A stretch of DNA of 64,000 bases. Source: Dehalococcoidia bacterium (GTDB lineage: Bacteria; Chloroflexota; Dehalococcoidia; Lucifugimonadales; UBA3495). The notes beneath the pieces are model-generated. The model was not told the DNA's origin. It did no database searches and saw only the letters and a list, made by a program, of their open reading frames with translations. Made by a program: the position numbers and the translations under genes. Shown one piece after another: positions 20,564-43,274 of the stretch (position 1 is the first letter of the stretch; the number at the start of each line of letters is the position of its first letter). The stretch is from positions 72,698 through 136,697 of the forward strand of contig OZ251531.1 of assembly GCA_965243185.1 (NCBI GenBank), in the 5' to 3' direction.

Positions 20564-20700
20564 TGCGCCGCTGTCGGTGGGTTTCGTTTGCTTTTAGGGT
20601 ACAGGTTTCCAGTTTTATGCAAAATGCGTAAAACTGGACTGGCTATAAAAGCGCCGTACCCTAAAAGCCAACGGAACCATTGCAACGCTATCGCGTCCCC
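20562..20700 (+). ncRNA. candidate structured ncRNA (long irregular hairpin, 6S-like architecture)
   Basis: Stems GGTTTCGTT/AACGGAACC, GCTTTTAGGGTAC/GTACCCTAAAAGC and CCAGTTTTATGC/GCGTAAAACTGG around an asymmetric internal loop. G-U pairs favour the + strand. Confidence 0.4.
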
Positions 20701-20741
20701 AGCCGCCGCAAAACCGCCCAAATTCCCCAGATCCGCCCAAG

Positions 20742-20769
20742 TTGAAAATCCCGGCAATGCCTATATAAT
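20742..20769 (+). promoter_or_regulatory. sigma70-type promoter of fakA-degV-recG
   Basis: TTGAAA-16 nt-TATAAT, 50 nt upstream of ATG 20819. Confidence 0.55.
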
Positions 20770-20818
20770 AGCAGTAGTTACCCCCACCACTAACCCTTTC
20801 CGCAAGGTAACGGCAACA

Positions 20819-22483
20819 ATGGAAACCCTGTGCGGCGCTGACTTTGCCCACGCCCTGACCGCCGGCTTTCGCTGCCTCGAACGCTACCGGGACACCATCA
20901 ACGCCCTGAATGTGTACCCGGTTCCCGACGGCGACACCGGCACTAATATGCTGCTGACCATGCGCGCCGGCATCCCCCATGACGCCCCGGCTCCCGAGGC
21001 CGCCGTTGGCGATGTGGCCGCCCAACTTGCTGACGGCGCCTTTTGGGAAGCCCGCGGCAACAGCGGCGTCATCCTTTCCCAGTTTTTCAAGGGCATTGCC
21101 CAGGGCTTGGCCGGACGGGAAGTTTGCGCCCCGTCCGACTTGACCGCCGCCTTCCAGTCCGCTACTGACGCCGCCTATCGCGCCGTGGGCAACCCGGTCG
21201 AAGGGACAATGCTGACCGTCATCCGCTGCGCCGCCGCCGCTCTTGAAAAAGAACCGCAGACCGGCGCGGCCGCCGACATCACCGCCCACTGGAAAACCGC
21301 CCTCGCCGCCGCCCAAATCGCCCTCGACGACACCCCCAACTTACTGCCCCGGCTCAAAGAAGCCGGCGTAGTCGATGCCGGCGGTATGGGAATCGTTGCC
21401 ATCCTCGGCGGCGCTTATGCTCACCTCAGCGGGCAGGATGTTGACCAACTGGACTTGGGCTTTCCGGCTGTTGCCGGTGACCTTTCCCAATTGGCTACCG
21501 CCGCCGTAGAAAGCGATTTCCTCGACGCCTCCACCGAAGCCCAGTGGGGCTACTGCACCCAATTCCTGATTCAAGGGGAAAGTCTTGACCTGGAGCAAGT
21601 CCGCGCCGACTTGGCCCAAACCGCCGACTCCCTGGTTATTGTCGGCGATGAACGGGTTATCCGGGTGCATATTCATATTGCCGACCCCGGGGCGGCCCTG
21701 ACCTACGGCGTGGCCTTGGGCGAACTGTCCCAAATCAAAATCGACAATATGAACCTGCAAAATCAGGATTGGGCGGCCGGCCATCAAGCGGCCCGGCCGG
21801 AAAACGGCGGCCCGCCCCCGGCTGACTTGGCCCTGGTTGCCGTAGCTCCCGGGGACGGCTTGGCCCAACTGTTCCGGGATTCCGGCTGCGCCGCCGTAGT
21901 CAGCGGCGGGCAAACGATGAACCCCAGCGTGGCCCAGCTGGTCAACGCCGCCGCCGCCGCCAGCAGCCGCGAAGTCATCCTCCTCCCCAACAACAAAAAT
22001 GTCGCCATCACCGCAACCCAAGCGGCGGAACGGGAAAATGACGCCCAGCAACTTTATGTAGTACCCACCCGCACCGTGGCCCAAGGCGTCGCCGCCGCCC
22101 TGGCTTTCAACGCCCAACTCCCGGCCGCCGCCAACCTGCAAGCGATGCAAAACGCCGTTGCCGCCGTTGTTTCCATCGAAGTCACCCGCGCCGTCCGCGA
22201 CACTACCCTTGACGGCGTAGCAGTAGCGGAGGGCGATTATATGGGATTGGTCGAGGGCGATTTAGCCGTAGTTCAGGACACCCCGGAGGCCGCCCTTTTG
22301 TCCGCCCTGTCCGGCGTTGGCATTACCGACGACCATATCGTAACCCTCTACCGGGGCCTAGATACCGCCCCGGAGCAAGCCGAACTCATTGCCCGTCAAA
22401 TCGAGGAACAGACGCCTGGCATCCAGGTTGACCTGGTGTATGGCGGGCAGCCCCATTATCCCTATTTTGCCGCCGTGGAGTAA
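20819..22483 (+). CDS. fakA: DAK2 domain protein / fatty acid kinase catalytic subunit (FakA/YloV)
   Basis: INALNVYPVPDGDTGTNM, ARGNSGVILSQ, PVEGTMLTV, VVDAGG, GYCTQF, GGQTMNPS, ILLPNNKN and GGQPHYPY motifs. Confidence 0.93.
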   Translation: METLCGADFAHALTAGFRCLERYRDTINALNVYPVPDGDTGTNMLLTMRAGIPHDAPAPEAAVGDVAAQLADGAFWEARGNSGVILSQFFKGIAQGLAGREVCAPSDLTAAFQSATDAAYRAVGNPVEGTMLTVIRCAAAALEKEPQTGAAADITAHWKTALAAAQIALDDTPNLLPRLKEAGVVDAGGMGIVAILGGAYAHLSGQDVDQLDLGFPAVAGDLSQLATAAVESDFLDASTEAQWGYCTQFLIQGESLDLEQVRADLAQTADSLVIVGDERVIRVHIHIADPGAALTYGVALGELSQIKIDNMNLQNQDWAAGHQAARPENGGPPPADLALVAVAPGDGLAQLFRDSGCAAVVSGGQTMNPSVAQLVNAAAAASSREVILLPNNKNVAITATQAAERENDAQQLYVVPTRTVAQGVAAALAFNAQLPAAANLQAMQNAVAAVVSIEVTRAVRDTTLDGVAVAEGDYMGLVEGDLAVVQDTPEAALLSALSGVGITDDHIVTLYRGLDTAPEQAELIARQIEEQTPGIQVDLVYGGQPHYPYFAAVE

Positions 22484-22489
22484 CCGAAT

Positions 22490-23326
22490 ATGTCCATCCG
22501 CATCGTTACCGACAGCACCGCCGACCTGCCCGCCGACCTGGTCCAGGAACTGAACATCAGCATCGTCCCCAGCAATGTGGTCATCGACGATGTCAACTAC
22601 CGGGACGGCATCGACCTGACCCCGGATGAGTTCTACCAGCGGCTGACCGCCGGCCCCCGCTTGCCGACCACTTCCCAGCCCTCCGTCGGCGCTTTCCAAG
22701 CCGTCTATCAGGGCTTGCTGGAACAGGGCCACGACATCGTATCCCTCCATGTTTCCGGCAAACTCAGCGGCACCGTCAACTCGGCGGTGCAAGCCAAAGC
22801 CGCCCTCGGCGACCCCAACATTGCCGTCATCGATTCCAACTTGGCATCGATTGCCTTGGCTTTGGTGGTGGTCAAAGCGGCCCAAGCCGCCCGTCAGTCC
22901 GAATCCTACGAGGAAGTAGCCGAACAAGCCCGCTTGACCGTCGGCCAGACCGGCGTTTTCTTTTTCGTGGATACCCTGGAATACCTGCAAAAGGGCGGGC
23001 GTATCGGCAAAGCCCAGGCTTTTGTCGGCTCTCTGCTCCATGTCAAGCCCATCCTGACCTTGCAGGATGGCGAAGTCCATCCCCTGGAGCGGCAGCGCAA
23101 CCGGGAACGGGCCCTCCGCCGCCTGGTTGAACTGACCCGGGAGCGCGCCCCGGTGCAGCAGATTGCCGTATCCTACAGCACCGAACCGGCCGCGGCCGCC
23201 GACCTTCGCGGCCGCTTGAGCGACTTGCTGCCCCCGGAACAAATCATCACCAGCCGTTTCGGCCCGGCTATCGGAACTTATGTCGGCCCCGGCGCCCTCG
23301 GCTTGGCTTACACCGCCGCCGGCTAA
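22490..23326 (+). CDS. degV: DegV family fatty-acid-binding protein (FakB)
   Basis: IVTDSTADLP, PTTSQPS, SGKLSGT, VDTLEYLQKGGRIG and GTYVGPG motifs. Confidence 0.95.
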   Translation: MSIRIVTDSTADLPADLVQELNISIVPSNVVIDDVNYRDGIDLTPDEFYQRLTAGPRLPTTSQPSVGAFQAVYQGLLEQGHDIVSLHVSGKLSGTVNSAVQAKAALGDPNIAVIDSNLASIALALVVVKAAQAARQSESYEEVAEQARLTVGQTGVFFFVDTLEYLQKGGRIGKAQAFVGSLLHVKPILTLQDGEVHPLERQRNRERALRRLVELTRERAPVQQIAVSYSTEPAAAADLRGRLSDLLPPEQIITSRFGPAIGTYVGPGALGLAYTAAG

Positions 23327-23341
23327 ACCCGCTGGTAAGCT

Positions 23342-25840
23342 ATGCCCACTCCTGCCGTCAACACCGCCGCCTGGATTAAGCCTTTCCGCAGCATCCTGGA
23401 ACTGGAAAGGAGCAACCGGTTTGACAACCGCGCCGTAACCGGCGGCCTCGACCGTTTCCTCGAGCATTGGGCGGCGGACCTTGCCGCCTTCATCGCAAAC
23501 ACGCCGGATGCCCCGCCGTTGCCCCGTCCATCCTACGCCCAACTCTCCCTTGCGGCACGGGAACAGTGGGCCGAACCCTGGCTTGCCCTGCTAACCGCCG
23601 GCTCGACCGCCGCGCCCCGGGAAACCGCTAACCGGGAAACACCGCCGCCGGCCGCGCCTCAATCCCGGCAATCCCGCCGCCCAGCGGCCGCCGCATCCGG
23701 CCCGCCGCCAGGTCTAACCATCGACGCCCCGGTAACCAGTCTCAAACGGGTGGACGCTAAACTGTCCGACCGGTTGAACCGCTTGGCCGTGGCCACCGTC
23801 CGCGATTTGCTTTACCACTTTCCCCGCTATCACCAGGACTATTCCCGCGCTGCCAAAATCGCCGAACTGCAATTCGGACAGGAAGTAACCGTCACCGGCC
23901 GCCTTTCCCACATCCAGGTAGCGCCGCTAGGCCAAAGCGGCCGCCTCCAGGCTACCCAAGCCCTCCTGACCGATGACACCGGCAGCCTCCGGGTATCCTG
24001 GATTGGGCAAAGCTATATGGCACGCCGCCTCAAAGCCGATGCCCCGGTCAACCTCAGCGGCAAGGTTGACGCCTTTCAAGGCCGCCTGACTCTCGAAAAT
24101 CCGGAATACGAGGACATCAGCCGCGGCCAAATCCCCGTCCACACCGGCCGCCTGCTCCCGGTCTATCCCTTGACCGCCGGCTTGACCGGCCGCAATCTCC
24201 GCAGCCTTACTTGGCAAGCCCTCAACGAATGGCTCGGCGGCATTGCCGAATCCCTTCCCGAAAGTCTCTTATCCCGTACCGGCTTAATGCCCCTGCACCA
24301 AGCGATCCGTCAAGCCCATTACCCGGACAACTTCGGCGACTGGGCCCGAGCCCGCCGCCGTCTGGCTTTTGACGAACTGCTGACTTTGCAGCTTTCCGTC
24401 CTGGCCCGCCGCCACCGCAACGCTCAAGATGTAGCCGGCGTAACTATTCCCGCCGACCCCGCCTTGCTCGACCGCGTCATCCAGTCCTTGCCCTTTGCCC
24501 TGACCAACGCCCAGCGCCGCTGCCTTGACGAAATCCTGGCTGATTTGCAGCGCGGCGCTCCGCCCATGAGCCGCTTGCTCCAGGGAGAAGTAGGCAGCGG
24601 CAAAACGGTAGTGGTGTTGGTAGCCTTATTAGCCGTTATCGCCGCAGGTTGGCAAGGCGCCATTATGGTGCCTACCGAAGTCTTGGCCGAACAGCACTTC
24701 CAAACCGTCGCCAATCTCCTTGGCGGAATGGGGCAGATTGCCCGGGAAAACAACATCACCACCGCCTACTGCGATGCCCTGGGCCGCCCGGTAACCGTCG
24801 GCTTGCTAACCGGCAGTATCCGCGCCCGTCCCCGCCGCCAACTGACCGCCATGGCCGCTGAGGGCAGCCTTGACCTGCTTATCGGTACCCACGCCTTGAT
24901 TCAGAACGGCATAGAGATGCCTAACCTGGCTTTGGCGGTTATGGATGAACAGCATCGCTTCGGCGTAATGCAGCGTTCCGCCCTGCGCCAGAAAAGCCAA
25001 GAAAATCCCCATACCCTGGTTATGTCCGCCACCCCTATCCCCCGCACCCTGACCTTGACCCTTTACGGCGACCTCGACTTGTCCACCCTCGACGAACTTC
25101 CCCCCGGCCGTCAGGAAATCCTGACCCGCTGGTTCGACCCGGAACGGCGCGGCGCGGTTTATGGCTTTATCCAAAAGCATATCCGCGACGGCCGCCAAGC
25201 CTTTATCGTCCACCCTTTGATTGACGAATCCGATGCTGTCGCCGCCAAAGCCGCCACTGAGGAATATGAGCGGCTCTCCCGGGAAGTCTTTCCCCAACTG
25301 CGCTTGGCGCTCCTCCACGGCCGGATGAACGCCGCCGACAAGGACAAGACCATGCGCCGCTTCCGGGACGGGGAACTCGACATTCTGGTAACTACGGCGG
25401 TGGTGGAAGTAGGCATTGATGTCCCCAACGCCAATGTAATGCTGATTGAGGGCGCGGACCGCTTCGGCCTCTCCCAACTCCACCAGTTCCGCGGCCGCGT
25501 CGGCCGCGGCGAATACAAAAGCTACTGCATCCTGATGTCCGACGACCCTTCGGAAATCGCCCGGGAACGGTTGACCGCTCTGGAGCAGCATCAAGACGGG
25601 TTCCAGCTGGCTGAGATTGACCTGGAAATGCGCGGCCCCGGCGATTTCTTTGGCACCCGTCAAAGCGGCCTGCCCAGCCTGCGCATGGCCCAACTCTCCG
25701 ACCGGGAACTCCTCGACCAAGCCCGCCAGGAGGCCGCCCGCCTGATGCAAGCCGACCCGGAACTGTCCCATCCCGAACACGCCGAACTAGCCGCCCAAGT
25801 AGCCCGCTACACCGAAAAAATCAGCGCCGAGTTCACCTAA
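23342..25840 (+). CDS. recG: ATP-dependent DNA helicase RecG
   Basis: Wedge domain, RRLAFDE, LLQGEVGSGKT, PTEVLAEQH, DEQHRFG, MSATPIPRTL, QLHQFRGRVGRG and DLEMRGPGDFFGTRQSG motifs. Confidence 0.98.
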   Translation: MPTPAVNTAAWIKPFRSILELERSNRFDNRAVTGGLDRFLEHWAADLAAFIANTPDAPPLPRPSYAQLSLAAREQWAEPWLALLTAGSTAAPRETANRETPPPAAPQSRQSRRPAAAASGPPPGLTIDAPVTSLKRVDAKLSDRLNRLAVATVRDLLYHFPRYHQDYSRAAKIAELQFGQEVTVTGRLSHIQVAPLGQSGRLQATQALLTDDTGSLRVSWIGQSYMARRLKADAPVNLSGKVDAFQGRLTLENPEYEDISRGQIPVHTGRLLPVYPLTAGLTGRNLRSLTWQALNEWLGGIAESLPESLLSRTGLMPLHQAIRQAHYPDNFGDWARARRRLAFDELLTLQLSVLARRHRNAQDVAGVTIPADPALLDRVIQSLPFALTNAQRRCLDEILADLQRGAPPMSRLLQGEVGSGKTVVVLVALLAVIAAGWQGAIMVPTEVLAEQHFQTVANLLGGMGQIARENNITTAYCDALGRPVTVGLLTGSIRARPRRQLTAMAAEGSLDLLIGTHALIQNGIEMPNLALAVMDEQHRFGVMQRSALRQKSQENPHTLVMSATPIPRTLTLTLYGDLDLSTLDELPPGRQEILTRWFDPERRGAVYGFIQKHIRDGRQAFIVHPLIDESDAVAAKAATEEYERLSREVFPQLRLALLHGRMNAADKDKTMRRFRDGELDILVTTAVVEVGIDVPNANVMLIEGADRFGLSQLHQFRGRVGRGEYKSYCILMSDDPSEIARERLTALEQHQDGFQLAEIDLEMRGPGDFFGTRQSGLPSLRMAQLSDRELLDQARQEAARLMQADPELSHPEHAELAAQVARYTEKISAEFT

Positions 25841-25988
25841 CCCAACCTTTATCAGGTTCAGATCGATTGTAGATGATTTTCAACTTTACGATATTAGCGA
25901 AAAGTTCATTTCATCCACAATCAAACGGCGCCGGATTTCCCGGCGCCGTGACATTAAAAGTCTCTGAGCATAAAGCGGAACGGTATCC

Positions 25989-27059
25989 TTACCGCGCCCG
26001 GTACAGGTTTTTGATGCCCTGGACGGCGGCCAGCCGCTGCTCCGCTAGCCGGTCGGCGGCCTGCGCCGTAGGGATTTCCTCATCCCGGGCCGTGGCGATC
26101 ACCCGCTCCATAATTTCGTAAATCCGCTCCGTCTTTTCCCGGGCCAATTCCGGGTTATACACCATCCCCACCTCGGCGGACACATTGATGACGCCGCCGG
26201 CGTTGATTACATAGTCCGGGGCGTACAGGATACCCCGGCGGTGCAGTTCCGCCCCGTCGGCTTCCGTCAAAAGCTGATTGTTGGCCCCGCCGGCTACAAT
26301 GCGGCCGGTCAGCCGGGGAATGGTGTCTGCGTTCAGCGTCCCGCCCAGGGCGCAGGGCGAAAATATGTCGCTCGGCACATCATAAATCTCCTCCGGCGCC
26401 ACCGTCTTGATGCCCAAATCCCGGGCCTTGTCCAGAGCGGCGGGATAAACGTCGGTAGCCACGATTTGGGCATCCTCCTTCAGCAGGTGGTGCGCGGTAT
26501 GGAAAGCCACCTTGCCAAATCCCTGCATCGCCACCTTACGCCCCCGCAGGGAATCGCTGCCCCAAACCTCCCGCGCGCAAGCTTTCATCCCCATATAGAT
26601 GCCCAGCCCGGTCATAATGGAAGTGTCGCCGCTGCCGCCCCGGGACAATGGCAATCCCACCACATACTCCGTTTCCTGCCGCACATACTCCAAATCCCGC
26701 CCGGTGCTGCCTACATCAGTAGTGGTCAAATAGCGGCCGCCCAAGGCGTCCACGGACCGCCCGTAGGCGCGCAGCAGGGCTTCCGATTTCTGATGATGGG
26801 GGTCGGCGATGATAACGCCCTTGCCGCCGCCCAGCGGCAGGTCGGCAGTCGCCGATTTGTAGGTCATCGCCCGGCTCAAGCGTAGCGCGTCTTGCAGCGC
26901 CGCCGCTTCCGTGCCGTAAGGCCAGATGCGGACGCCGCCGCAAGCCGGACCCAAAGTAGTGTCGTGGATGGCCACGATGGCTTTCAACCCGGCCGCCGGG
27001 TCGGTGAACAACGCCAACTGCTCGTAGCCGCCCCGGTTCATTTCGTCAAAAATCTGCAT
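25989..27059 (-). CDS. Leu/Phe/Val (Glu/Leu/Phe/Val family) dehydrogenase
   Basis: AIHDTTLGPACGGVR, LSRAMTYK, GGGKGVI, QGFGKV, FSPCALG, GGANNQL and YAPDYVINAGG motifs; AAGGAGG RBS. Confidence 0.93.
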   Translation of the reverse strand: MQIFDEMNRGGYEQLALFTDPAAGLKAIVAIHDTTLGPACGGVRIWPYGTEAAALQDALRLSRAMTYKSATADLPLGGGKGVIIADPHHQKSEALLRAYGRSVDALGGRYLTTTDVGSTGRDLEYVRQETEYVVGLPLSRGGSGDTSIMTGLGIYMGMKACAREVWGSDSLRGRKVAMQGFGKVAFHTAHHLLKEDAQIVATDVYPAALDKARDLGIKTVAPEEIYDVPSDIFSPCALGGTLNADTIPRLTGRIVAGGANNQLLTEADGAELHRRGILYAPDYVINAGGVINVSAEVGMVYNPELAREKTERIYEIMERVIATARDEEIPTAQAADRLAEQRLAAVQGIKNLYRAR

Positions 27060-27265
27060 CACGGCAACCTCCTTCAGTAGAACGGAATGGGCGGACGGCA
27101 ACCGCAGTTGCCCGATACTATAATTATACTGGATAAACCCGGCGGGCAACATAGATTATCCCGCCCCAAATACCCGGGAAAATCCCCCGCAACCCGCCCG
27201 GAAGTGATATGATGTTTCCCAACCCGGCCCGGCGGCCGACATCCGGCGTCTCAGGAGAAGGAATA

Positions 27266-27568
27266 ATGTTCATACGAATGGTTTGGGGCAAGCTGCGCCC
27301 CGGCAGTTGGGATGAGTACGAGCGGCATTACCACGAGCGGCTGGCCGGTTCCGCCGGCAGCATCCCCGGCCTCAAGGAACGGCAGTTGCTCCGCAGCACC
27401 GAGGACGCCGACGAGGGCGTCAGCGTCTCCATCTGGGATACTCTGGAAAATATGCGCGCCTACGAGGTGGGCGAGTTTCGCCAGTCCGTCGCCAAGGAGA
27501 TGGAACACCTCTACCGGGGCGAGTACTGGGTCAAACACTTCGAGGTCATCAACTCCACCCAGGAGTAA
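27266..27568 (+). CDS. antibiotic biosynthesis monooxygenase (ABM)-like dimeric alpha/beta barrel protein
   Basis: MFIRMVWGKLRPG…PGL…LLRS…GVSVSIWDTLENMRAYE pattern. Confidence 0.75.
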   Translation: MFIRMVWGKLRPGSWDEYERHYHERLAGSAGSIPGLKERQLLRSTEDADEGVSVSIWDTLENMRAYEVGEFRQSVAKEMEHLYRGEYWVKHFEVINSTQE

Positions 27569-27612
27569 CCCGTAGCTCGCGCCCTTGGCTCCGACCCACT
27601 ACCGGTTTCCCG

Positions 27613-27650
27613 AAAAAAGCCCGGCCGGCTTGCGCCGGCCGGGTTGCTTT
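27613..27650. terminator. hairpin between convergent genes, probable bidirectional terminator
   Basis: A6, then GCCCGGCCGGC-TTGC-GCCGGCCGGGT, then TGCTTT. Confidence 0.65.
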
Positions 27651-27715
27651 CTGTATCCGCTCGATGCCCCCTTGCCAACACATTGACGCAGCAGGGAACT
27701 AAGCCTTCCCTTGGC

Positions 27716-28489
27716 CTATACTTCCTGCGGCTTCCGTCCCTTCCGTTCCAGAAAGTCCTTAAAACCTTCCTCGACGGACAGGCCGCGGAAACGCCCCTGC
27801 CGGGAGTTGACTTCGTTCCAGAACTGTTCCTCCATCGGCTTGCCGGTATGCTCAAAGAGCATCTGCTTGATGTTGGCTATCCCTTCGGCGCGGTTTTTGG
27901 CGATGCCGGCGGCTACTTCTACCGCCTTGTCCAGCAGCTCCGCTTGCGGCACCAGATGGTTCAGCAGGCCGATGCGGTAGGCTTCCTCGGCAAAGACTTC
28001 CCGCCCGCTGTAGAGCAGTTCCTTGGCCCGCGGCCAGCCAATCAAGTTGGGCAGGCTCCAGGTAGCGTTCATCTGCCCGTAGTTGACCGCCAAAAACCGA
28101 AAACTGCTCTTATCGCAGCCAATCAGGAAGTCCAGAGAAGTCGCCATTACGGTGCCGCCGCCGTAGCAGAGTCCGTTGACTGCGCCGATAATGGGCTTGG
28201 GACTGGCGGCCATGTGCCAAGTATATTCGGCGCGTTCGGCGGCGGCGGCGTCCCGCTCCTCCGGCGTGCGCTCCCGGTTTTCATGGATGTCGGCGCCGGC
28301 GGAAAAAGCCCGGTCGCCGGCTCCGGTGATGACAATGGCACCCACATCGTCATCGGCTTCCAGAGCGGTCAGGGCGGTATCCAACTCCCGCACCAGTTGC
28401 AGGTTCAGCGCGTTCAGCACCTCCGGCCGGTTCAGCGTAACGATGGCAACCCGCTGCTCCTGCTCGATTTTGATGGTTTCATAGCTCAT
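27716..28489 (-). CDS. enoyl-CoA hydratase/isomerase family protein
   Basis: VTLNRPEVLNALN, ITGAGDRAFSAGADI, KPIIGAVNGLCYGGG and LLNHLVP motifs. Confidence 0.92.
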   Translation of the reverse strand: MSYETIKIEQEQRVAIVTLNRPEVLNALNLQLVRELDTALTALEADDDVGAIVITGAGDRAFSAGADIHENRERTPEERDAAAAERAEYTWHMAASPKPIIGAVNGLCYGGGTVMATSLDFLIGCDKSSFRFLAVNYGQMNATWSLPNLIGWPRAKELLYSGREVFAEEAYRIGLLNHLVPQAELLDKAVEVAAGIAKNRAEGIANIKQMLFEHTGKPMEEQFWNEVNSRQGRFRGLSVEEGFKDFLERKGRKPQEV

Positions 28490-28732
28490 AGTGGCCTAAC
28501 TCTCCTGTCAATATCCGGCGGCCCTTGCCGCCGGCTGGCAAGGTGGGCACGGCGCGGGGGCCGCCGGGTTTAGTTGGGCTAATAATAAAGCACAGTTACG
28601 CGGAAAGTAAAGAAAGACTGCCCCGGCGGTGGCGTTCCACTTTGGGCCTCATCCTCTATAGTTTGTAGCGGTTAGTCCCCAAAGTGAAACGACGCCCTTG
28701 CCCATCCCGCCATCCCTTGCTACAATCAATCT

Positions 28733-29608: not shown

Positions 29609-29632
29609 AAGTCCATCCTCGTACCCAGCCCC

Positions 29633-32749: not shown

Positions 32750-32770
32750 CCCCAATCATCCTTTCCGGAG

Positions 32771-33212: not shown

Positions 33213-33267
33213 CGACCAACTCCCTCCTGCCTTCCAGACTTTCCCACGCCCCCTCCCCCAAAAAAAC

Positions 33268-35265: not shown

Positions 35266-35301
35266 CCCTGGAACCCTCTACTCCCTCAAAATCATCCCCG
35301 A

Positions 35302-35991: not shown

Positions 35992-36036
35992 AGAATTCCC
36001 TCCCGTGCCGCTATAACCCGAATTGCCGACCGCAGC

Positions 36037-36630
36037 CTACCCTCCCCCCATCCCCCGCAACGCCAGCCGTATCCGCTCCTCCAGCGTCTGCCCCGGCCCC
36101 CGCTCCAAACCCCCAATCGCCCGCCGCGCCTCCGCCGTCGAATACCCCAACGCCGTCAACGCCGCCACCAACTCCCCATCGCCCTCCGCCGCATAACCGC
36201 CGCCGCCCGCCGCCGCATCCCCCTCGGCCAACTCCAGCTTCCCCTTCAACTCCAGCACCAAGCGGCTCGCCGTCCGCCGCCCGATACCGCTAACCCCGCT
36301 CAACGCCGCCACATCCCCCTCAGTAATCGCCTGCTGCAAACCGGCCGCCCCCAGTCCCGACAGCAACGCCAACCCCAAGCGCGGCCCCACTCCGGACACA
36401 CCAATAATCGCCTGAAACAGCTCCAGCGCCGCCGCGCTGCCAAAGCCGTACAAAACCGGCTGGTCATTAACCATCCGCAAATGGGTAAAAAACTGCACCG
36501 TACCGCCGGTCGGCCCCAAGTTGGCAATATCCGCCGTCGGCGCATAAACCAGCAACGTAACCCCGCCCACCGTCAAATGCACCCAATCGCCGCCTACCGC
36601 CGCCAATTGCCCCCGCAGCCCTACAATCAC
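36037..36630 (-). CDS. ruvA: Holliday junction branch migration protein RuvA
   Basis: VGGVTL, THLRM…LYGF, FQAIIGVSGVGPRLGL, SGIGRRTASRLVLELKGK and ALTALGYS motifs; GTG start overlaps the ruvC stop. Confidence 0.95.
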   Translation of the reverse strand: MIVGLRGQLAAVGGDWVHLTVGGVTLLVYAPTADIANLGPTGGTVQFFTHLRMVNDQPVLYGFGSAAALELFQAIIGVSGVGPRLGLALLSGLGAAGLQQAITEGDVAALSGVSGIGRRTASRLVLELKGKLELAEGDAAAGGGGYAAEGDGELVAALTALGYSTAEARRAIGGLERGPGQTLEERIRLALRGMGGG

Positions 36631-37154
36631 CGCCGCAACTCCCGCCCCGGCGCAATCTCCCGCGCCAACGCCGACCGCGCCCCGCTCTGGATCAAATGAC
36701 ACAACCCCACCGACAGCGCATCAGCGGCGTCCGCCTCCGGCAAAGTCGGCAGACCCAAAGTCGCCGCCAACGCCTGCTGCATCTGCTCCTTCGTCGCCGC
36801 CCCATAATCCGCCACCGCCCGTTTCACCTCCGCCGGCGCATACCGATACACCGGCAGTCCCGCGCTGGCCGCCCCAATCAAAACCACCGCTTGCGCCTGC
36901 CCCACCGCAATGGCCGGCCCGATAAACTGCCGTTCCCCCCGGCCCACAAACGGCTCCTCCACCGCCACCGCCTCCGGCTGAAACACGCTAATCATATTGC
37001 CGACATGGGTAAAAAGCTGATACAACCGCTTCTCCAGCGGCATCCCCTTGGGCAAAGCCACCACCCCATAATCCGCCGCCGCCGGATGCGGCTCGCTCTC
37101 CAGCACCCCATACCCCATCCGCACCGTCCCCGGATCAATCGCCAATACGCGCAT
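36627..37154 (-). CDS. ruvC: crossover junction endodeoxyribonuclease RuvC
   Basis: VLAIDPGT..MGYG, AVEEPF, VGQAQAV, EVKRAV.DYG.ATKEQMQ and DAADAL motifs. Confidence 0.96.
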   Translation of the reverse strand: MRVLAIDPGTVRMGYGVLESEPHPAAADYGVVALPKGMPLEKRLYQLFTHVGNMISVFQPEAVAVEEPFVGRGERQFIGPAIAVGQAQAVVLIGAASAGLPVYRYAPAEVKRAVADYGAATKEQMQQALAATLGLPTLPEADAADALSVGLCHLIQSGARSALAREIAPGRELRR

Positions 37155-37190
37155 CCCGTCCCCCTCAATCTAGCCATCATCCCCACCATC

Positions 37191-37395
37191 ATACCGTCAT
37201 CCCTCCACCCCCACCGTCATTCCCACCACCACACCGTCATTCCCACGAAAGTGGGAATCCAGAACCACCCTCAAATTCCATCATCCCCACCGTCATTCCC
37301 GTGCCAAAGGGAATCCACAGCCACCCTCAAATGCCATCATTCCCCCCACCCCCACCGTCATTCCCACGAAAGTGGGAACCCAGAACCCTCAAATG
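37191..37395 (+). repeat. tandem cluster of CGTC-type REP units
   Basis: CGTCATTCCC-N8-GGGAA(T/C)CC at 37235, 37291 and 37356, each followed by a (c)accctcaaat-like linker, plus truncated units at 37194 and 37215. Confidence 0.85.
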
Positions 37396-37434
37396 CAACC
37401 AGCCCGGCTCCATCCCAGCCGGGCTGCCTTCTCC

Positions 37435-37899
37435 CTACCGCACCGGCGCGCCCCCCGGCCCACCGCCCCAACCATCATCCTCTCCCGGCCGTGGCGGCTG
37501 CCCGCCCTCCGCCAAAATCCGGTAATAATCCGCCGCATCGGCAAACCCCTGCGCCTGCCGCTCCGCCGCCTGCGCCCGTTCCAACGCAATCTGCGACAAA
37601 TACGGCACCAAGCGCGGGTCATCCACCTTCCGCCCCAGCGTCTCCGCCAACTGCCGATTCTTCCGCAGCGCCGGCGCCAACCGCGGATCTTCCGTCCACT
37701 TCAGAATATCCAAAGCCTCCCGGCCCCGATCCACGTGTTCCCGCGCCTTCTCCAACGCCGCCCGCGCCGCCGCCTCCGCCCCCCGGGCCGCCGCAATCTC
37801 CCGCAGCGTCCGCGCCTGCTCCGCCGTCAACCCCGGAAACGGACTCGGCGGCCCCTCCTCCGGCTTTTCCCGCTTGCCAAACAATCCCCAGAACTTCAT
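37435..37899 (-). CDS. hypothetical helical protein
   Basis: ATG 37899 with GAGGGG RBS; internal repeat (E/D)DPRL(A/V)P(A/Y)L. Confidence 0.55.
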   Translation of the reverse strand: MKFWGLFGKREKPEEGPPSPFPGLTAEQARTLREIAAARGAEAAARAALEKAREHVDRGREALDILKWTEDPRLAPALRKNRQLAETLGRKVDDPRLVPYLSQIALERAQAAERQAQGFADAADYYRILAEGGQPPRPGEDDGWGGGPGGAPVR

Positions 37900-37997
37900 T
37901 ATCCCCTCCATCAACAAATGGAACCACCCACCAATTTCAGACCCTAGGGCGTATTCCCCCTAATTATTGACGCCCGGATAACCGACCCTATACCTAT

Positions 37998-38064
37998 GTC
38001 ATTCCGACCAAAGGGAGGAATCTAAAATGCCCGCCCTTGATTCTTTGCTATCCCTCGGAATGAC
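37998..38064. repeat. second CGTC/GTCA-type REP doublet
   Basis: GTCATTCCGACCAAAGGGAGGAATCT…GATTCTTTGCTATCCCTCGGAATGAC; a related single unit is at 39114-39141. Confidence 0.7.
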
Positions 38065-38123
38065 CTGACTGACCGACTGCGCTACCCAATCGTTAGCGTG
38101 AACACACTCCAACCGCCCCCACC

Positions 38124-38891
38124 CTACGCCGTCAGCTGATACTGCTCCAAAACCTCCGCCGGAAAATCGGCGTTAGTATAAGCCTTCTGCACATCCGCCA
38201 AATCCTCCAGCAAATCCAGCAGCCGCAGCGTCTGCTCCGCCGCCCGATTATCCAAAGCAATGGTGGACTTCGGCGCCATAACAATATCCGCCGCCTCCGG
38301 CGTCACCCCCTCCGCCGCCAACGCCCCCTGCACCGCTTGCAGCGTATCCGGCGCCGTATAAATCTCCAGCGTCCCCTCCTCAATTTTCACATCCTCCGCC
38401 CCGGCGTCAATCGCCAGCAAACCCAGCTCCTCGGCCCGCTCATCGTCAGCAATGGCGACCGTCAACGCCCCCTTGACCTCAAAGTTCCACGCCACGCATC
38501 CCGACTCCCCCAAACTGCCGCCGCCCTTGTTAAACGCCGACCGCACCTCCGCCGCCGTCCGATTGCGGTTATCCGTCAACGCTTGCAGCAGAATCGCCCC
38601 CCCGCCCGGGCCATAGCCCTCATAAGTAATCTCCACCAGGCTGTCCGCCGCATCGCCGCCCTCCCCCGCACCCCGTTTCACCGCCCGTGCGATGCTGTCC
38701 TGCGGCATATTATTGGCCTTCGCCTTGTCAATCGCCAGCCGCAGCCGAAAGTTCATATCCGGATCCCCGCCACCGCCCTGACTCGCCGCCAGCGTAATAT
38801 CCCGGGCCAACTTAGTGAACAGCGCGCCCCGCTTGGCGTCCGCCGCCCCCTTGGCCCGCTTAATCGTCGACCACTTGGAATGTCCCGACAT
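38124..38891 (-). CDS. yebC: YebC/PmpR family protein
   Basis: MSGHSKWSTIKRAKG, YEGYGPGG, TDNRNRT, GESGCVAWNF and DVQKAYTN motifs. Confidence 0.98.
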   Translation of the reverse strand: MSGHSKWSTIKRAKGAADAKRGALFTKLARDITLAASQGGGGDPDMNFRLRLAIDKAKANNMPQDSIARAVKRGAGEGGDAADSLVEITYEGYGPGGGAILLQALTDNRNRTAAEVRSAFNKGGGSLGESGCVAWNFEVKGALTVAIADDERAEELGLLAIDAGAEDVKIEEGTLEIYTAPDTLQAVQGALAAEGVTPEAADIVMAPKSTIALDNRAAEQTLRLLDLLEDLADVQKAYTNADFPAEVLEQYQLTA

Positions 38892-39022
38892 AAGAGTGCC
38901 TCCCTATGCCTTGCCTACCCTTTCCCCCTGCTTTCCCGCCCCGAATTGTACCACCACCCCAACCCCAGGTCAAAGGGCTTTCCGCCGTCCTATCCCCCAT
39001 CGCAACCGCCATTCCCACACCA

Positions 39023-39141
39023 ACCGTCATTCCACCCTCCCCCCGTCATCCCCACCCTCGACCGTCATTCCCACGAAAGTGGGAATCCAGAACCCCCGCC
39101 CTTATAGCATTATGTCATTCCGAGGCGCAGCCGAGGAATCT
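39023..39141 (+). repeat. REP cluster between yebC and the MmeI-like gene
   Basis: Full CGTCATTCCCACGAAAGTGGGAATCCAG at 39063-39090, partial units at 39023 and 39043, and a GTCATTCCGAG unit at 39114. Confidence 0.8.
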
Positions 39142-39181
39142 CGACGCCCCCACCGGAGCCAAACCCGGCCACCGCAAACCC

Positions 39182-41917
39182 TCACCCCGCCCGCTCCAAA
39201 TTCAACGCCAGCAAACGCCCCAAAATCACCTGCTCCTCCAAATCCACCGCCCACCCATAAGCCGCCGCCACCGCCGCATCCAACTCCCGATGCGCATTGA
39301 CCAGCCAAGTCGGACTCTGGTTATACAAGTTCGTCAAAGTCCGCCCTTTCCGTTCCGCCTCCGTCAACCCCGGCTTGCCCTCCTCGTCCACCGGCTTTAA
39401 CCAATTCCCCCGCAACTCATCCAAATTAACCGCCGCCTCGGCGATAGCCGCCCTTTGCCCCTCAGTAGGTTCCGGGAACGGAAAAGTCCAAAAGCAGGCA
39501 GTGGGAATATAGCGCGATGCCGATTCCTTATCCCGCAGTTGCGGCCCCATCGCCCGGGCCCACAAATTGTGAATGCGGGAATGCAGTACGCCGAAAAAAT
39601 AATCATCGTCCCGGGCAAATACATTGGTGGCATTGTTGCAAATAGTGCCAGCCTCGACCCAAACAAAGGTCAAATGCTTGGCCGTAACCGAATGGGCTAT
39701 GTATCGGGGCAAGCCGGCAAGAGCCGCCGTCATATTCCTTGCCGGCTGGCGGGATTGCCAATAATTCCCGGCCAAATCCAGCCCGGCTTGCTCCGCCGCT
39801 TGTTTTGCCAACTCAAAAGGCGCTTCGTACGCTGCCGCTTCGGCCAAAGACCTATCGCCAAAGGCAATAGTGTAATACCCCCGGGGACGCCCGGATAGGT
39901 CTTGCCCGTTTCTTACCGGAACCAAGACATCCGAATTAGGCTTCCGATTCGGATTGCCACCAGCTGCCAAAAGTTTTGCGGCTACATCCCCGGGAATGTC
40001 AAAAGGCGAAGTGCTCGGACCGCGGAACGCAATGCCGGCATTAGCCGGCAATTTTCGGGCCGCAACCAAATCGACCTGCGGCTCGAGATTCGCAAAGATA
40101 TGTTCCACCGGCTCGCCGTCAATCGTCTTACTGGTTTGCGAACCGTCGTCAAATCCAATGATTGAAACATGGACGCTGGCCCCGTCCAGCAGCCAATCCC
40201 GGTCCGGGTAGGCCATAAATATGCCGCCCGACTCAGTTATCCGCTCCAACACTCCCCGGCTATACACCGAGCGGATATTCTGCGTAGCCAGCAAACCGGC
40301 GCGCTTGGCCTTGCCGTTAGCTATTTGCTGCCGGGCAAGCTCAAACCAATAGCAGCACAAGTCCGATGACCGTTTTATCGCAGATTTATACGCCGTGTCA
40401 ACGTCGTCGATGTATGCCCGCTCAAAGTTTTTATTCCAACTCCGGCGGCCCAAAAACGGCGGATTGCCAATGACAAAATCCGCCGCCGGCCACTCCGCTT
40501 CCCTCGGATTATCCGGATCCGCCAAATCCAGAATGGCATCCCCCTGCCGCACCGTATCCAGCGGCGTCAAAATCGGCTCCTGGACATACTCAAACCCGTT
40601 AGCCTGATGCCACTGAATATAGCCAATCCACAACGCCGTCCGCGCCAACTCCGCGGCGTAAGAGTTAATTTCCAGCCCCTGCATCTGATTCGGCTTCACC
40701 AACGGCGTCAAATCCTCCCAGCCCTGTACCGCCGCAAAGTCAATCGCCTGCCGCTCCAAATCCAGCAGGGAACGCAGCGCAATGTAAAGAAAGTTGCCGC
40801 TGCCGCAAGCCGGATCCAGCACCTTCACCCCGGCCAAACGCCGCCGGTAATCCTCCAACCGCTGCCGCGCCTTTTCCCCGTCCCCGTCCGCCAGATAATC
40901 CCCCATCTCCCCCTTGGCCGCCTCCCACTCCCGCCGCAGCGGCTCCAGCACCACCGGCTCCACCACCAGCATTATGTCCTCCGCCCCGGTGTAATGCGCC
41001 CCCAGCTGCGACCGCTTCGACGCATCCAACGCCCGCTCAAACAGCGTCCCGAATATCGACGGTTCAATGCCGTTCCAGTTCTTTTTAACCGCCTCCCCCA
41101 ACCGTTGCAGCGCCGCCGGACTCAGCTCCACCGTATCCGCCGCCTCAAACAAATCCCCGTTGAACCACGGAATTTCCGCTGCCCCGAACATCCCGCCCAC
41201 CGCCATCTGCTCAAACAACCCGCCCATCGCCCGGTTGAACGCCGTCGGATCCCGATACTCCCGGCTCACAATCTGCGTAAAGAGCTTGTCCGGCAGCAGC
41301 CCGGCATCCTCGGCGTACAGGCAGAACACGATCTGATTCAAATACCGCGCCAACCGCTCCGGATCCTCGTTATGCGCCTCCATATCCGCCACAATATCCC
41401 GGAACAAATCCGCCGTTTCCCGGGTAACCTCCTCCACCGACCGCTCCGGCCGCAAATCCCCCGGCGCAAAAAATGCGCTGCGGAGCAATTGCAGCTTTTC
41501 CGGTTCCGCCAGTTCCGGCAGCGCAATATCGTGCCGCGTCGTCACCATCCCCGGAAAGTTCGTCTGTATCCGTATCGACCGAAAAGAGGAAACAATCAGC
41601 AGCGGCGGCGTCTTGAGATGCACCTGATAGCGCAGCAGCTGGGTCATCGCCCCGTCCAAATCCCCATCGCTCCCCTTGAACTCCCACCCGAACCGCTCCT
41701 CCAGGTAAGCATCCGCAAACCCGCCCGGCACCCATTTCTCAAAAGTGAACGCCGCCGGATTGCCATACTCCCCCGGCGTAGCGTGTCCCACCATCCGGCA
41801 AATATCCAGGAACATTTCCTGCGCCGCCTGCTTTTCCCCGAACTGAACCGACATCCACTTGTTGATGAACCGTTCCGGCCGCAAACTCGGCTGCCGCGCC
41901 TCGCTAAAAAGCGTCAT
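39182..41917 (-). CDS. MmeI-like type IIL/IIG fused restriction endonuclease / N6-adenine methyltransferase
   Basis: N-terminal D…EFK (ADAYLEERFGWEFKG), FNGDLF, IEPSIFGTLFE, LGAHYT, LDPACGSGNFL and GNPPFLG motifs, TRD with LHSRIH, ~911 aa. Confidence 0.9.
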   Translation of the reverse strand: MTLFSEARQPSLRPERFINKWMSVQFGEKQAAQEMFLDICRMVGHATPGEYGNPAAFTFEKWVPGGFADAYLEERFGWEFKGSDGDLDGAMTQLLRYQVHLKTPPLLIVSSFRSIRIQTNFPGMVTTRHDIALPELAEPEKLQLLRSAFFAPGDLRPERSVEEVTRETADLFRDIVADMEAHNEDPERLARYLNQIVFCLYAEDAGLLPDKLFTQIVSREYRDPTAFNRAMGGLFEQMAVGGMFGAAEIPWFNGDLFEAADTVELSPAALQRLGEAVKKNWNGIEPSIFGTLFERALDASKRSQLGAHYTGAEDIMLVVEPVVLEPLRREWEAAKGEMGDYLADGDGEKARQRLEDYRRRLAGVKVLDPACGSGNFLYIALRSLLDLERQAIDFAAVQGWEDLTPLVKPNQMQGLEINSYAAELARTALWIGYIQWHQANGFEYVQEPILTPLDTVRQGDAILDLADPDNPREAEWPAADFVIGNPPFLGRRSWNKNFERAYIDDVDTAYKSAIKRSSDLCCYWFELARQQIANGKAKRAGLLATQNIRSVYSRGVLERITESGGIFMAYPDRDWLLDGASVHVSIIGFDDGSQTSKTIDGEPVEHIFANLEPQVDLVAARKLPANAGIAFRGPSTSPFDIPGDVAAKLLAAGGNPNRKPNSDVLVPVRNGQDLSGRPRGYYTIAFGDRSLAEAAAYEAPFELAKQAAEQAGLDLAGNYWQSRQPARNMTAALAGLPRYIAHSVTAKHLTFVWVEAGTICNNATNVFARDDDYFFGVLHSRIHNLWARAMGPQLRDKESASRYIPTACFWTFPFPEPTEGQRAAIAEAAVNLDELRGNWLKPVDEEGKPGLTEAERKGRTLTNLYNQSPTWLVNAHRELDAAVAAAYGWAVDLEEQVILGRLLALNLERAG

Positions 41918-41957
41918 AACTCCCTCCAACTTTCCCCGGTAACCCCTTGGGCAATGC

Positions 41958-42560
41958 CTACCCCATCCCCCCCATCAACCGAACCCGCATCACCCCCAAC
42001 TCCAAATCCACCCCCAACACCACCTGCCGCACCGCCGGCAGCAAAACCTCCCCCTCCGGCCCCGCCACCACATAAACATCATTGCTGCCCGTAACGATAA
42101 CCTCCCGAATACGCCCCAACTCCGCCCCCTCCTCCGTCATCACCCGCAGCCCCAGCAGTTGAAAGTGATAATACTCCCCCGCCGGCAAAACCGGCGCGCT
42201 CGTCGCCGCCACCGTAACCTCCACCCCCGCCAAAGCCCGCGCCGCCGCCCGCGTCCTCACCTCGTCCAACTTCAGAATCACCTGCTCCGGCGGCCGCAAA
42301 ACCGACCGTACCACCCGGTACGGTCGGCCGCGCAAAAACAAATCCCGACCCGCATCAAACCGCTGCGGAACATCACTCAGGCTCTTCACCCGCAGCGCTC
42401 CATCCGTGCCGTGCGGCCCCAAAACCAGCCCCACGACCACCTGCTCGCCGCCGGCCGCCCCCTCCTGGCATCCTGCGTCGCTCAAACTCTCGCTCAAAAT
42501 CGGCCCAAACCTGTTCCAAGTTGAACTAGCGACGCCGCAACGCCCCCAAATCAGCCCCAA
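41958..42560 (-). CDS. rimM: ribosome maturation factor RimM (true start probably downstream of 42560)
   Basis: VVGLVLGPHG..G.LRV, LPAGEYYHFQLLGL and TGSNDVYVV…LLPAV motifs. Confidence 0.92.
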   Translation of the reverse strand: MGLIWGRCGVASSTWNRFGPILSESLSDAGCQEGAAGGEQVVVGLVLGPHGTDGALRVKSLSDVPQRFDAGRDLFLRGRPYRVVRSVLRPPEQVILKLDEVRTRAAARALAGVEVTVAATSAPVLPAGEYYHFQLLGLRVMTEEGAELGRIREVIVTGSNDVYVVAGPEGEVLLPAVRQVVLGVDLELGVMRVRLMGGMG

Positions 42561-42575
42561 GGTATAGGGAAAGGA

Positions 42576-42803
42576 CTACACAATCTCCAGCACGGCCCGC
42601 GTCCCGTCCTTCACCGCCGCCACCCGCAGCAGCACCCGCATCGCCTGCGCCACCCGCCCCTGCCGACCGATAACCTTCCCCTTATCCTCCGGGGCCACTT
42701 CCAACCGCAGCACCACCTGGCCGTCCTCGATCGTCTCCGTAACTTGCACCGCCTCCGGATTCGTCACCAAGGAGCGGGCAATGTACTCAATCAGCTCTTT
42801 CAT
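42576..42803 (-). CDS. khpA: KH domain RNA-binding protein KhpA
   Basis: MKELIEYIARSLV.NPEAV…DKGKVIGRQGRVAQAMR; located between rpsP and rimM. Confidence 0.93.
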   Translation of the reverse strand: MKELIEYIARSLVTNPEAVQVTETIEDGQVVLRLEVAPEDKGKVIGRQGRVAQAMRVLLRVAAVKDGTRAVLEIV

Positions 42804-43072
42804 TCCGCGGCCCCCTCCGGCGACCGCATCCGCTCATAGATGCCGTCCCGCTCCAGAATCCGCTTCACCGCCGCCGACGGCTGCGCCCCCTTTTCCAACC
42901 ACGCAATGGCCCGTTCCGCCTTCAGCGTCACCGCCGGCGGATCCACCATCGGGTCATACTGACCAATCCACTCCACATAGGCACCATCCCGCGGCGCCGC
43001 CGCCTCCGCCACCACTACCCGATAGGCGGGATACTTCTTCTTCCCCACCCTTCGCAACCGAATTCGCAGCAT
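42800..43072 (-). CDS. rpsP: 30S ribosomal protein S16
   Basis: IRLRRVGKKK.PAYRVVV…PRDG.Y.E.IG.YDP…WLEKGAQPS. Confidence 0.98.
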   Translation of the reverse strand: MLRIRLRRVGKKKYPAYRVVVAEAAAPRDGAYVEWIGQYDPMVDPPAVTLKAERAIAWLEKGAQPSAAVKRILERDGIYERMRSPEGAAE

Positions 43073-43192
43073 ACCAACTCCCCCGACCGGCCACGCGCCG
43101 GCCGCAACTTGTTGCCGCCATTCTAATCCAATTCCCCCGCCCTGTCAATCGCGCCCCACGCCAAGTATTCCCTTCTTATTTTTAGTAAAAGT

Positions 43193-43274
43193 GAGGGTTC
43201 CCTTCGATTGTGGTTGATTTTCTGAATCCTCGGTTGCGCCTGGAAATCAGCTCAACCCCAATCGAAAGGAACCC
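43193..43274. other. 82-nt imperfect hairpin
   Basis: GGGTTCC-C-TTCGATTG-T-GGTTGA pairs with TCAACC-C-CAATCGAA-A-GGAACCC. Confidence 0.75.

Follow-up and report, generated by a model that had tools for sequence, protein, structure and literature searches.

Introduction

Local reversals of GC skew are an established mark of inversions that have not re-equilibrated in their new orientation, from the skew analyses of Grigoriev and Lobry to SkewIT (Lu & Salzberg 2020), as these are cited in PMC12863080. Here we analyze a stretch of 64,000 nucleotides (the window, positions 72,698-136,697) of G000, a metagenome-assembled genome (MAG) of an uncultured Dehalococcoidia (Chloroflexota) lineage that is a single contig of 3,374,202 bp (3.37 Mb) with 61% G+C and is rich in insertion sequences (IS). 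The window contains a block of 22.6 kb, running from fakA to rpsP, whose skew is opposite in sign to that of the DNA on either side. A sequence-only reading of the window had proposed that this block is either a recent, unameliorated inversion or the product of chimeric assembly. Our analysis leads to a different assignment. It is likely that the two skew flips are genuine rearrangement junctions at which the block itself is un-inverted, its right-hand neighbor having been inverted in place and its left-hand neighbor brought in.

The locus resembles known skew-reversal inversions in having a sharp sign change at each breakpoint, in the sharing of one sign by genes on both strands, and in a gene order that, in the right-hand neighbor (segment C), is reversed relative to that of related genomes. 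It differs from them in that the piece that appears inverted is here the un-inverted one, in that the genome has about 100 skew domains rather than one or two, and in that the usual global reference of replication origin and terminus is absent.

Three further systems offer close comparisons. In Wolbachia, rearrangements and transposable elements mask the GC skew (Comandatore et al. 2015, PMC4703054); there the IS-rich symbiont-type genomes lack a genome-wide skew, a stable IS-poor relative is regular, and genes were re-ordered by the gene order of the relative. G000 is likewise an IS-rich, scrambled genome without a genome-wide skew pattern. However, scrambled Wolbachia genomes have weak skew, whereas here the scrambled lineage has the strongest local skew, with third-codon-position GC skew (GC3 skew; calculated per gene and read on the + strand unless given in the coding sense) reaching 0.8, and the stable relatives have the weakest. 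Furthermore, re-ordering by the gene order of a stable relative (G007) recovered no pattern here. An IS-burst strain of Riemerella anatipestifer has 91 synteny blocks and 118 IS982 genes (PMC12863080), and G000 shares with it a high IS load, many small synteny blocks and a structure confirmed by independent assemblies. In contrast to that single strain, scrambling in the present group is clade-wide (G000, G001, L109 and L318-L322 all differ) and the blocks are smaller, with a median of about 3 kb against the congeneric genome G001. Finally, symmetric inversions and replication-directed translocation are described as rearrangements that preserve polarity (Eisen 2000; Tillier & Collins 2000; Mackiewicz 2001; all cited in PMC12863080). 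Of the pieces that G000 and G001 have exchanged, most do stay on the G-rich or C-rich strand of the context they have moved into (25/28 and 23/28), but the two neighbors of the block, S1 on the left and C on the right, break polarity, and G000 has no single origin-terminus axis.

A literature search found no report of such a pattern in Dehalococcoidia or sponge Chloroflexi. Skew-reversal inversions, IS-scrambled skew and IS-burst genomes are all established, and the locus is an extreme form of this known kind of phenomenon.

Results

Skew pattern of the window

All-site GC skew in 2-kb intervals is +0.09 to +0.25 from 1 to 20 kb, -0.07 to -0.43 from 20 to 43 kb and +0.15 to +0.40 from 43 to 59 kb. 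Per-gene GC3 skew gives the same picture at finer grain. The 17 minus-strand genes in 1-19.7 kb have values of +0.02 to +0.55 (15 of them at least +0.18), and infC is at about 0. Across the left edge, the plus-strand genes fakA (-0.43), degV (-0.39) and recG (-0.39) are negative. The skew is then close to 0 (-0.18 to +0.06) over 25,989-29,608, and lies between -0.30 and -0.82 over 29.6-43.1 kb in plus- and minus-strand genes alike; the plus-strand D-glutamate cyclase pair has -0.42 and -0.53, and uvrB, DUF6946, ruvA, ruvC, yebC, the MmeI gene, rimM, the KH protein gene and rpsP are negative on the minus strand. Values return to about 0 over 43.3-48.6 kb and are +0.35 to +0.77 on both strands over 48.7-59.8 kb, with the exception of GmrSD (+0.14). 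Since genes on both strands share the local sign, the sign of the skew is set by the DNA strand and not by the gene.

This agrees with the sequence-only reading, which had noted that third-codon preference tracks the strand, and the computed skew does change sign at both of the positions it had indicated, about 20.6 and 43.2 kb. The steps, of about 0.75-1.4, compare with a gene-to-gene noise (SD) of about 0.155. The stretch at 26-28.5 kb that it had called intermediate is also real, and corresponds to a 2.8-kb insertion of three genes with a skew of about 0. AT skew is opposite in sign to GC skew, so that the G-rich strand is T-rich too, as on leading strands. G+C content is uniform across the window. 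Homology with relatives places the edges of the block at 20,574-20,698 and 43,151-43,278. Genes were called with a codon model of our own making and the calls within the window were checked against Pfam, which agrees with the gene names given earlier.

The window is made up as follows (window coordinates, strand, content).

1-20573, nearly all genes on the minus strand: left flank S1, with cobD, cobT, cobQ-like, moeA, pheT, pheS, rplT, rpmI and infC; it reaches 7.7 kb past the window start and totals 28 kb
20574-20698: left junction-specific DNA, with a palindromic element of about 110 nt (hairpin 20579-20689)
20699-25853, plus: fakA, degV, recG; GC3 skew about -0.4
25854-28692: mosaic insertion, with a Glu/Leu/Phe/Val dehydrogenase, an ABM monooxygenase and an enoyl-CoA hydratase; skew about 0
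28693-32809: NYN protein (plus), OmpR-type regulator (minus), D-glutamate cyclase pair (plus)
32977-43150, minus: uvrB, DUF6946, ruvA, ruvC, orf160, yebC, MmeI-type restriction-modification gene, rimM, KH protein, rpsP
39182-41929, minus: the MmeI-family type IIL restriction-modification gene, between yebC and rimM
43151-43278: right junction-specific DNA, with a palindromic element of about 90 nt (hairpin 43193-43274)
43279-48697: 5.4-kb transposon
46400-47670, minus: IS5-family element (DUF4096 and DDE open reading frames, 46417-47252), nested in the 5.4-kb transposon
48698-64000: segment C, with cupin, N4/N6 methylase, Mrr, DUF1932, orf222, herA, panC, GmrSD, etfA, etfB and others; GC3 skew +0.35 to +0.82 (GmrSD +0.14)
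59901-62081, minus: tandem pair of a 1,083-bp IS-like element (HTH and weak Mutator-type transposase match, 261-aa open reading frame)

Segment C is inverted relative to the relatives and the block is not

Three relatives were compared with G000. Two are of the same genus, G001, the closest genome, at 93-96% nucleotide identity and G002 at about 80%; the third, G007, is of the same family and is one IS-poor contig of 2.64 Mb. The fakA to rpsP block, which we denote B, is colinear and compact in both G002 and G007. The order common to these two genomes is A, then B, then C in the orientation opposite to that in G000, where A is the G000 segment at 3.20-3.2926 Mb that ends in ruvB/NIPSNAP. Segment D, which is G000 from 142 kb onward, is seen after C only in G002 and in marine loci. 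Segment C runs beyond the window to window coordinate 65,689, equivalent to genome position 138,386, and is about 17 kb in all.

In the relatives the order within C is g137442, g136048, etfB, etfA, panC, herA, DUF1932, Mrr, methylase, cupin. In 13 or more marine metagenome loci (66-82% identity in EtfB), rimM-, KH- and rpsP- are followed directly by g137442+, (g136048-), etfB+, etfA+ and panC-, where the sign gives the strand, and those loci that reach further continue with herA-, o222-, DUF1932+ and cupin-, and then g142067- and g142562-. The G000 order is rpsP-, then cupin+ through etfA- and etfB- to g136048+ and g137442-, then g142067-. Compared with G002, G007 and 13 or more of the marine relatives, segment C (window 48,698-65,689) is thus an exact in-place inversion between unchanged flanks. 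The marine loci come from a metagenome scan with EtfB in which the relatives have at most 82% identity (range 66-82%), making them informative on ancestral order and not on strain-level junctions.

The skew of the wider region is consistent with this assignment. In G000, segments A, B and D are all negative and C alone is positive. The local background is negative for 430 kb, starting at 3.09 Mb, crossing the contig start and ending at 146 kb, with two positive islands at 64.9-93.2 kb and 121.4-138.4 kb, and the flagged block is the negative stretch between them. Un-inverting C gives one continuous negative domain reaching -0.8, and the right-hand flip therefore belongs to the neighbor and not to the block. 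Sign reversal at both ends, with both strands sharing the sign, is seen in the block and in C alike. In contrast, a gene order reversed against the outgroups between unchanged outer flanks is found for C and not for the block. On these comparisons the block is a conserved syntenic unit that has kept its ancestral orientation relative to its ancestral outer neighbors A and D, and its skew is that of the local background.

IS copies, among them a third copy of the 1,083-bp element at genome 138958-140033, occupy the far breakpoint of C (genome 138.4-142.0 kb), whereas the near breakpoint is clean in the scaffold L320 described below. The tandem pair of this element and orf352 together form an insertion within C that separates etfB from the next conserved gene. 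The two copies of the pair lie head to tail, and the genome contains about 25 copies.

Singleton substitutions within C, read in the sense of the G000 + strand, have a G>A to C>T ratio of 63:15 in the two inverted lineages (G000 and L320) and 70:38 in four lineages with the ancestral orientation (Fisher p = 0.02). This is the direction that would be expected if the asymmetry depended on orientation and re-equilibration had begun.

The left flank appears to be imported

Orthologues of S1 genes lie at at least four separate places in G007 (104 kb, 1029 kb, 346-351 kb and 1386-1394 kb) and at two in G001 (C5:328-331 kb and 437-445 kb), suggesting that S1, from the cob genes to pheST-infC, is a composite segment moved in from elsewhere. 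In no relative does infC adjoin fakA, except in those that share the junction itself. The neighbor of fakA is ruvB/NIPSNAP in G007, G002 and L109. In G000, ruvB/NIPSNAP is found at 3.29 Mb, 175 kb from the block across the contig start, with the same orientation and skew sign as the block. L109 shows a third arrangement, in which uvrB to MmeI is inverted and lies upstream of ruvB/NIPSNAP-fakA. The absence of rpmB near fakA and of ffh before rpsP had been taken as a sign of breakage, but the relatives have ruvB/NIPSNAP before fakA and a conserved gene and etfB before rpsP, and the absence carries no such meaning.

Within S1 the genes infC-rpmI-rplT and pheS-pheT are co-directional in G000 (window 18057-20484), G001 and L110 and convergent in G002 (C5:306-315 kb) and G007 (1386-1394 kb). 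A small inversion would appear to have created or destroyed the classical infC-rpmI-rplT/pheST operon order.

Both junctions occur in independent assemblies

Three sequences from independent assemblies bear on the junctions. L110, a 9.5-kb scaffold, comes from another BioSample and is 94.8% identical to G000; L109 is a 67-kb contig with 92-94% identity; and L320, a scaffold of 8.5 kb with 92-93% identity, comes from a third sample. L109 and L110 were picked up because each carries the DegV protein of the window, and L320, along with L318, L321 and L322, was reached through the 90% cluster of the DUF1932 protein. Searching for exact copies of the RpsP, KH, cupin, EtfB, DUF1932 and YebC proteins gave zero matches. 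The matches of a UvrB search were all MAGs of uncultured Dehalococcoidia, Chloroflexota and SAR202, and many of these are closed assemblies of long reads. Marine metagenomes contain relatives of the clade, and a window protein has one homologue catalogued under the sponge Geodia barretti. The fakA gene of G001 carries in-frame stops, suggesting an unpolished long-read assembly.

The infC-fakA junction with its hairpin is contained in a single 7.1-kb alignment to L110 that runs from pheT through infC, the hairpin and fakA to recG. In L320, herA, DUF1932, a methylase fusion and cupin lead straight into rpsP, KH and rimM. This is the right junction of G000, including the right hairpin, with the same skew flip. 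As both junctions are present in assemblies from other samples, they are not misjoins. L318, L321 and L322 have yet another arrangement around panC and cupin, and at least four arrangements of the locus exist among strains that are at least 90% identical.

Junction palindromes and mobile DNA

The two hairpins that the sequence-only reading had placed at the edges are real by folding (z-scores of -4.6 to -8.3), and each junction-specific stretch is mostly one long imperfect palindrome. Each palindrome is single-copy in G000. The left one is found only in the genomes that share the junction (G000 and L110). Elsewhere, G001 has five or more diverged copies of it (71-80% identity), and arm matches of 23-27 bp occur in G005 and G008, which belong to two other genera. 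Among the sequences compared, the right one occurs only in G000 and L320, both with the inverted right-hand segment, apart from one 71% copy in G001. The junction palindromes look like miniature inverted-repeat elements (MITEs), and for the left one the diverged copies dispersed in G001 suggest a mobile palindrome. The only known RNA family that an Rfam search found in the window was a cobalamin riboswitch; neither hairpin matched one. As earlier reported, no repeat is common to the two edges of the block.

We considered whether the hairpins are special to the junctions and rejected this as not significant, given how common intergenic folding is: in 49% of G000 intergenic gaps a 110-nt window folds at -44 kcal/mol or lower. 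Because strong folding is this frequent in intergenic DNA, the presence of the hairpins was not counted as evidence of mechanism. The 631-aa fakA reading frame is over-extended (20588-20818) into the left hairpin. FakA proteins of relatives have 554 aa and align from about residue 70-78, which places the true fakA start near 20819 and makes the left hairpin intergenic.

The 5.4-kb transposon at the right junction has terminal inverted repeats of 61 bp (43278-43338 and 48640-48699), a 7-bp target duplication (CCCAATG) on both sides and an IS4-family DDE transposase (DDE_Tnp_1, 45275-46339). Its cargo comprises a Pro/Thr-rich, secreted-looking reading frame, an unknown reading frame and one of the PaREP1 family. 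L320 lacks 43,279-48,697 and so provides the empty site. The combination of the empty site in L320, the CCCAATG duplication and the 61-bp repeats indicates that the transposon entered the junction after the inversion. Terminal repeats, duplication, transposase and empty site are thus all present for 43,279-48,697, as in a DDE transposon. Other copies of the transposon are found in G001 at C4:665.9-670.0 kb and C5:2011-2012.4 kb, and the nested IS5 element is absent from the G001 copy.

The skew mosaic extends over the whole genome

The flips in the window are two of many. Change-point segmentation of the per-gene skew divides G000 into 99 alternating segments of 2-153 kb, and the idea of a single event at the block does not hold, since the whole 3.37-Mb genome consists of about 99 such domains. 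Skew steps of at least 0.4 number 120 in G000 (65 up, 55 down) and one in G007. Repeats of at least 500 bp make up 9.7% of G000 and 1.2% of the smooth-skew G007. We built 1,650 orthologue pairs between these two genomes. Sign flips occur at 38 of 193 adjacencies that are novel in G000, compared with 3 of 451 conserved ones (Fisher p = 3.6e-18), and 13 strong flips overlap a repeat copy where 5.2 are expected (p about 0.001).

The same DNA can be followed between close relatives. A 140-kb region of G001 (C4:550-690 kb) falls into 28 colinear blocks in G000, of median length 2.9 kb and scattered over the whole genome. The pieces share the sign of their surrounding 10 kb on each side in 25 of 28 cases in G000 and 23 of 28 in G001, and so most G000/G001 exchanges preserve polarity, with S1 and C as exceptions. 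Orthologues in G000 and G001 have the same coding-sense skew despite their different contexts, and so the skew travels with the DNA. Coding-sense skew in G000 is distributed symmetrically around 0. For the same orthologues the magnitude of the GC3 skew is 0.4-0.8 in G000 and G001 and 0-0.25 in G002 and G007, so the very strong skew is specific to the G000/G001 clade. The skew of G000 is more coherent in its own gene order (80% same sign at novel adjacencies) than in that of G007 (71%).

The sequence-only reading had argued that two flips 22 kb apart cannot both be the replication origin and terminus, and the flips at the edges of the block are indeed neither. The dnaA gene lies at 498 kb, about 380 kb from the window, the up- and down-steps number 65 and 55, and the step at 43.2 kb is an inversion breakpoint. 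The single 16S gene (2449015-2450528, minus) and the ribosomal-protein cluster (L14, 244962-245327, plus) are on the G-rich strand of their domains. Replication forks would nevertheless meet the ribosomal-protein cluster head-on if they came from a dnaA-linked origin at 498 kb.

In G007 the skew is weak and smooth, and near zero over most of the genome. Localized minus-then-plus features are present at about 512-575, 1126-1240 and 2550-2625 kb (around 538, 1160 and 2570 kb); within them the GC3 skew reaches -0.5 and +0.5 and fades over 25-60 kb. The G007 dnaA orthologue lies at 908 kb, where there is no skew switch.

Discussion

The skew pattern, the synteny, the confirmation of both junctions in independent assemblies and the genome-wide link between flips and synteny breakpoints are direct observations. 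Together with the mechanism that we propose, they would be explained as follows. One strand of G000 has become very G+T-rich, with a GC3 skew of up to 0.8, far stronger than in sister lineages, through what we infer to be replication-linked mutational asymmetry. A piece of DNA that is inverted, or re-inserted in the opposite polarity, would keep its former skew and so show a sharp sign change at its edges. The right-hand flip is the left breakpoint of the in-place inversion of the adjacent 17-kb segment C, where the 5.4-kb transposon landed later, and the left-hand flip is most likely the junction with an imported 28-kb composite carrying the cob genes to pheST-infC. Replication is presumably the cause of the asymmetry, and IS or MITE activity presumably drives the rearrangements. 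The unameliorated inversion of the sequence-only reading survives in part: the flips are rearrangement junctions whose skew has not re-equilibrated, but the block is not inverted, and it is the neighbors that were inverted or moved.

Several points weigh against this explanation. For the mechanism of the inversion, a search found no repeat common to both of C's breakpoints. A lineage 7% diverged (L320) also has C inverted, yet the skew of the segment is barely eroded, and the inversion is 'recent' only in a relative sense. The substitution test in C counts only 152 and 203 singletons, and it takes the replication polarity as given for strains represented by short contigs. Lastly, G000 has no two-replichore pattern: the best origin-terminus fit agrees with 65% of 5-kb bins, and re-ordering the G000 genes by the G007 order did not restore two replichores. 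Without an origin-terminus pattern, the native fork direction at the locus is inferred from the local background only.

This last feature is also what would be expected if the domains were real replication-polarity domains, on a chromosome that starts replication at several origins and ends it in diffuse zones, in the manner of archaeal multi-origin chromosomes or eukaryotic N-domains. The skew would then have been made in place, with up-steps such as that at 43.2 kb being origin-like and down-steps terminus-like. The localized minus-then-plus features of G007 lie away from dnaA, skew ramps are present within the G000 domains with slight excesses of negative slopes (42 vs 24) and of up-steps (26 vs 16), and the G000/G001 rearrangements preserve local polarity, all as this explanation would have it. 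We nevertheless give it only a small chance of being correct. The step at 43.2 kb lies exactly at a demonstrable inversion breakpoint and vanishes once C is un-inverted, the G001 orthologues keep their coding-sense skew whatever their context, flips are about 30 times more frequent at synteny breakpoints, and lineages with C inverted show a different substitution asymmetry there from those without the inversion. Moreover, up- and down-steps are near equal in number at a threshold of 0.4 (65 vs 55). There is a similarly small chance that the roughly 100 domains are more than rearrangement scars, with several initiation sites and with rearrangements selected to keep polarity within domains. Were the multi-origin explanation true, the chromosome would not be replicated as two replichores from a single dnaA-linked origin.

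A simpler account is that the 22.6-kb block was itself recently inverted in place between correctly oriented flanks. Its skew sign is opposite to that of both immediate flanks, and the junctions alone cannot separate an inversion of B from inversions of its neighbors. However, the orientation and negative skew of the block match those of A (3.22-3.29 Mb), D (142-146 kb) and the 430-kb background. The comparison with G002, G007 and the marine relatives, in which it is C that is reversed between an unchanged rpsP and g142067, contradicts an inversion of the block, and the left flank is not its ancestral neighbor in either orientation. We therefore regard inversion of the block as distinctly unlikely.

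A misjoin at one or both edges of a metagenome-assembled contig would be a natural suspicion for a MAG that is as extremely rearranged against G001 as this one (28 colinear blocks in 140 kb). It is nonetheless very improbable, as a single 7.1-kb alignment with a different BioSample (L110) spans the left junction and its hairpin, and the right junction, rpsP next to cupin, is found in L320 with an empty transposon site to which G000 adds a clean 7-bp target duplication. The coherence of polarity in G000 (25/28) and G001 (23/28) is also unlike that of random misjoins. Chimeric assembly can thus be set aside for both edges.

That the block or its flanks are horizontally acquired DNA of foreign composition can be dismissed as scarcely credible: the locus does contain IS elements and genes for defense (MmeI, methylase, Mrr, GmrSD, HerA), but the G+C content is uniform, the genes are mainly core genes (pheST, infC, recG, uvrB, ruvAC, rpsP, panC, etfAB) with orthologues and order conserved across the family, and only the 5.4-kb transposon, the IS copies, the MmeI gene and the 2.8-kb mosaic insert are cargo-like.

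Of the two edges in the window, then, neither is an assembly error, and what changes is the identity of the DNA that moved. Local skew reversals can be misread when no outgroup is at hand. This Dehalococcoidia clade pairs an exceptionally strong strand bias with extreme structural turnover, and the strong skew tags each piece with its former polarity, offering a natural system in which to order and date inversions and to measure the rate of re-equilibration. The clade is equally suited to asking how far a bacterial chromosome may stray from the two-replichore layout.

Other features of the window

The mosaic insertion is absent from between recG and the NYN/TransRegC genes in L109, G001, G002 and G007, and its three genes have orthologues at three separate places in G001 and in G007. 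The adjoining stretch 28693-32809 has GC3 skews of -0.42 to -0.53 except for NYN (-0.10), and in G002, G007 and L109 it runs colinear with the remainder of the block. From uvrB to rpsP the gene order is kept in G002, G007 and the marine relatives. The MmeI gene is variable cargo, being absent in G007, replaced in G002 and 68% identical in G001. It breaks up the usual rimM-trmD neighborhood.

The cobalamin riboswitch (Rfam RF00174, 106 bits) lies at 12524-12756 on the minus strand, upstream of a cobQ/cobB-like gene (10641-12002) within the cob cluster. Short intergenic repeats of about 55-100 nt are present at 12127-12218, 37173-37385, 37943-38110 and 38982-39150. They have 60-340 BLAST hits in G000 and dozens in G001 and G002, and resemble abundant MITE- or REP-like families.

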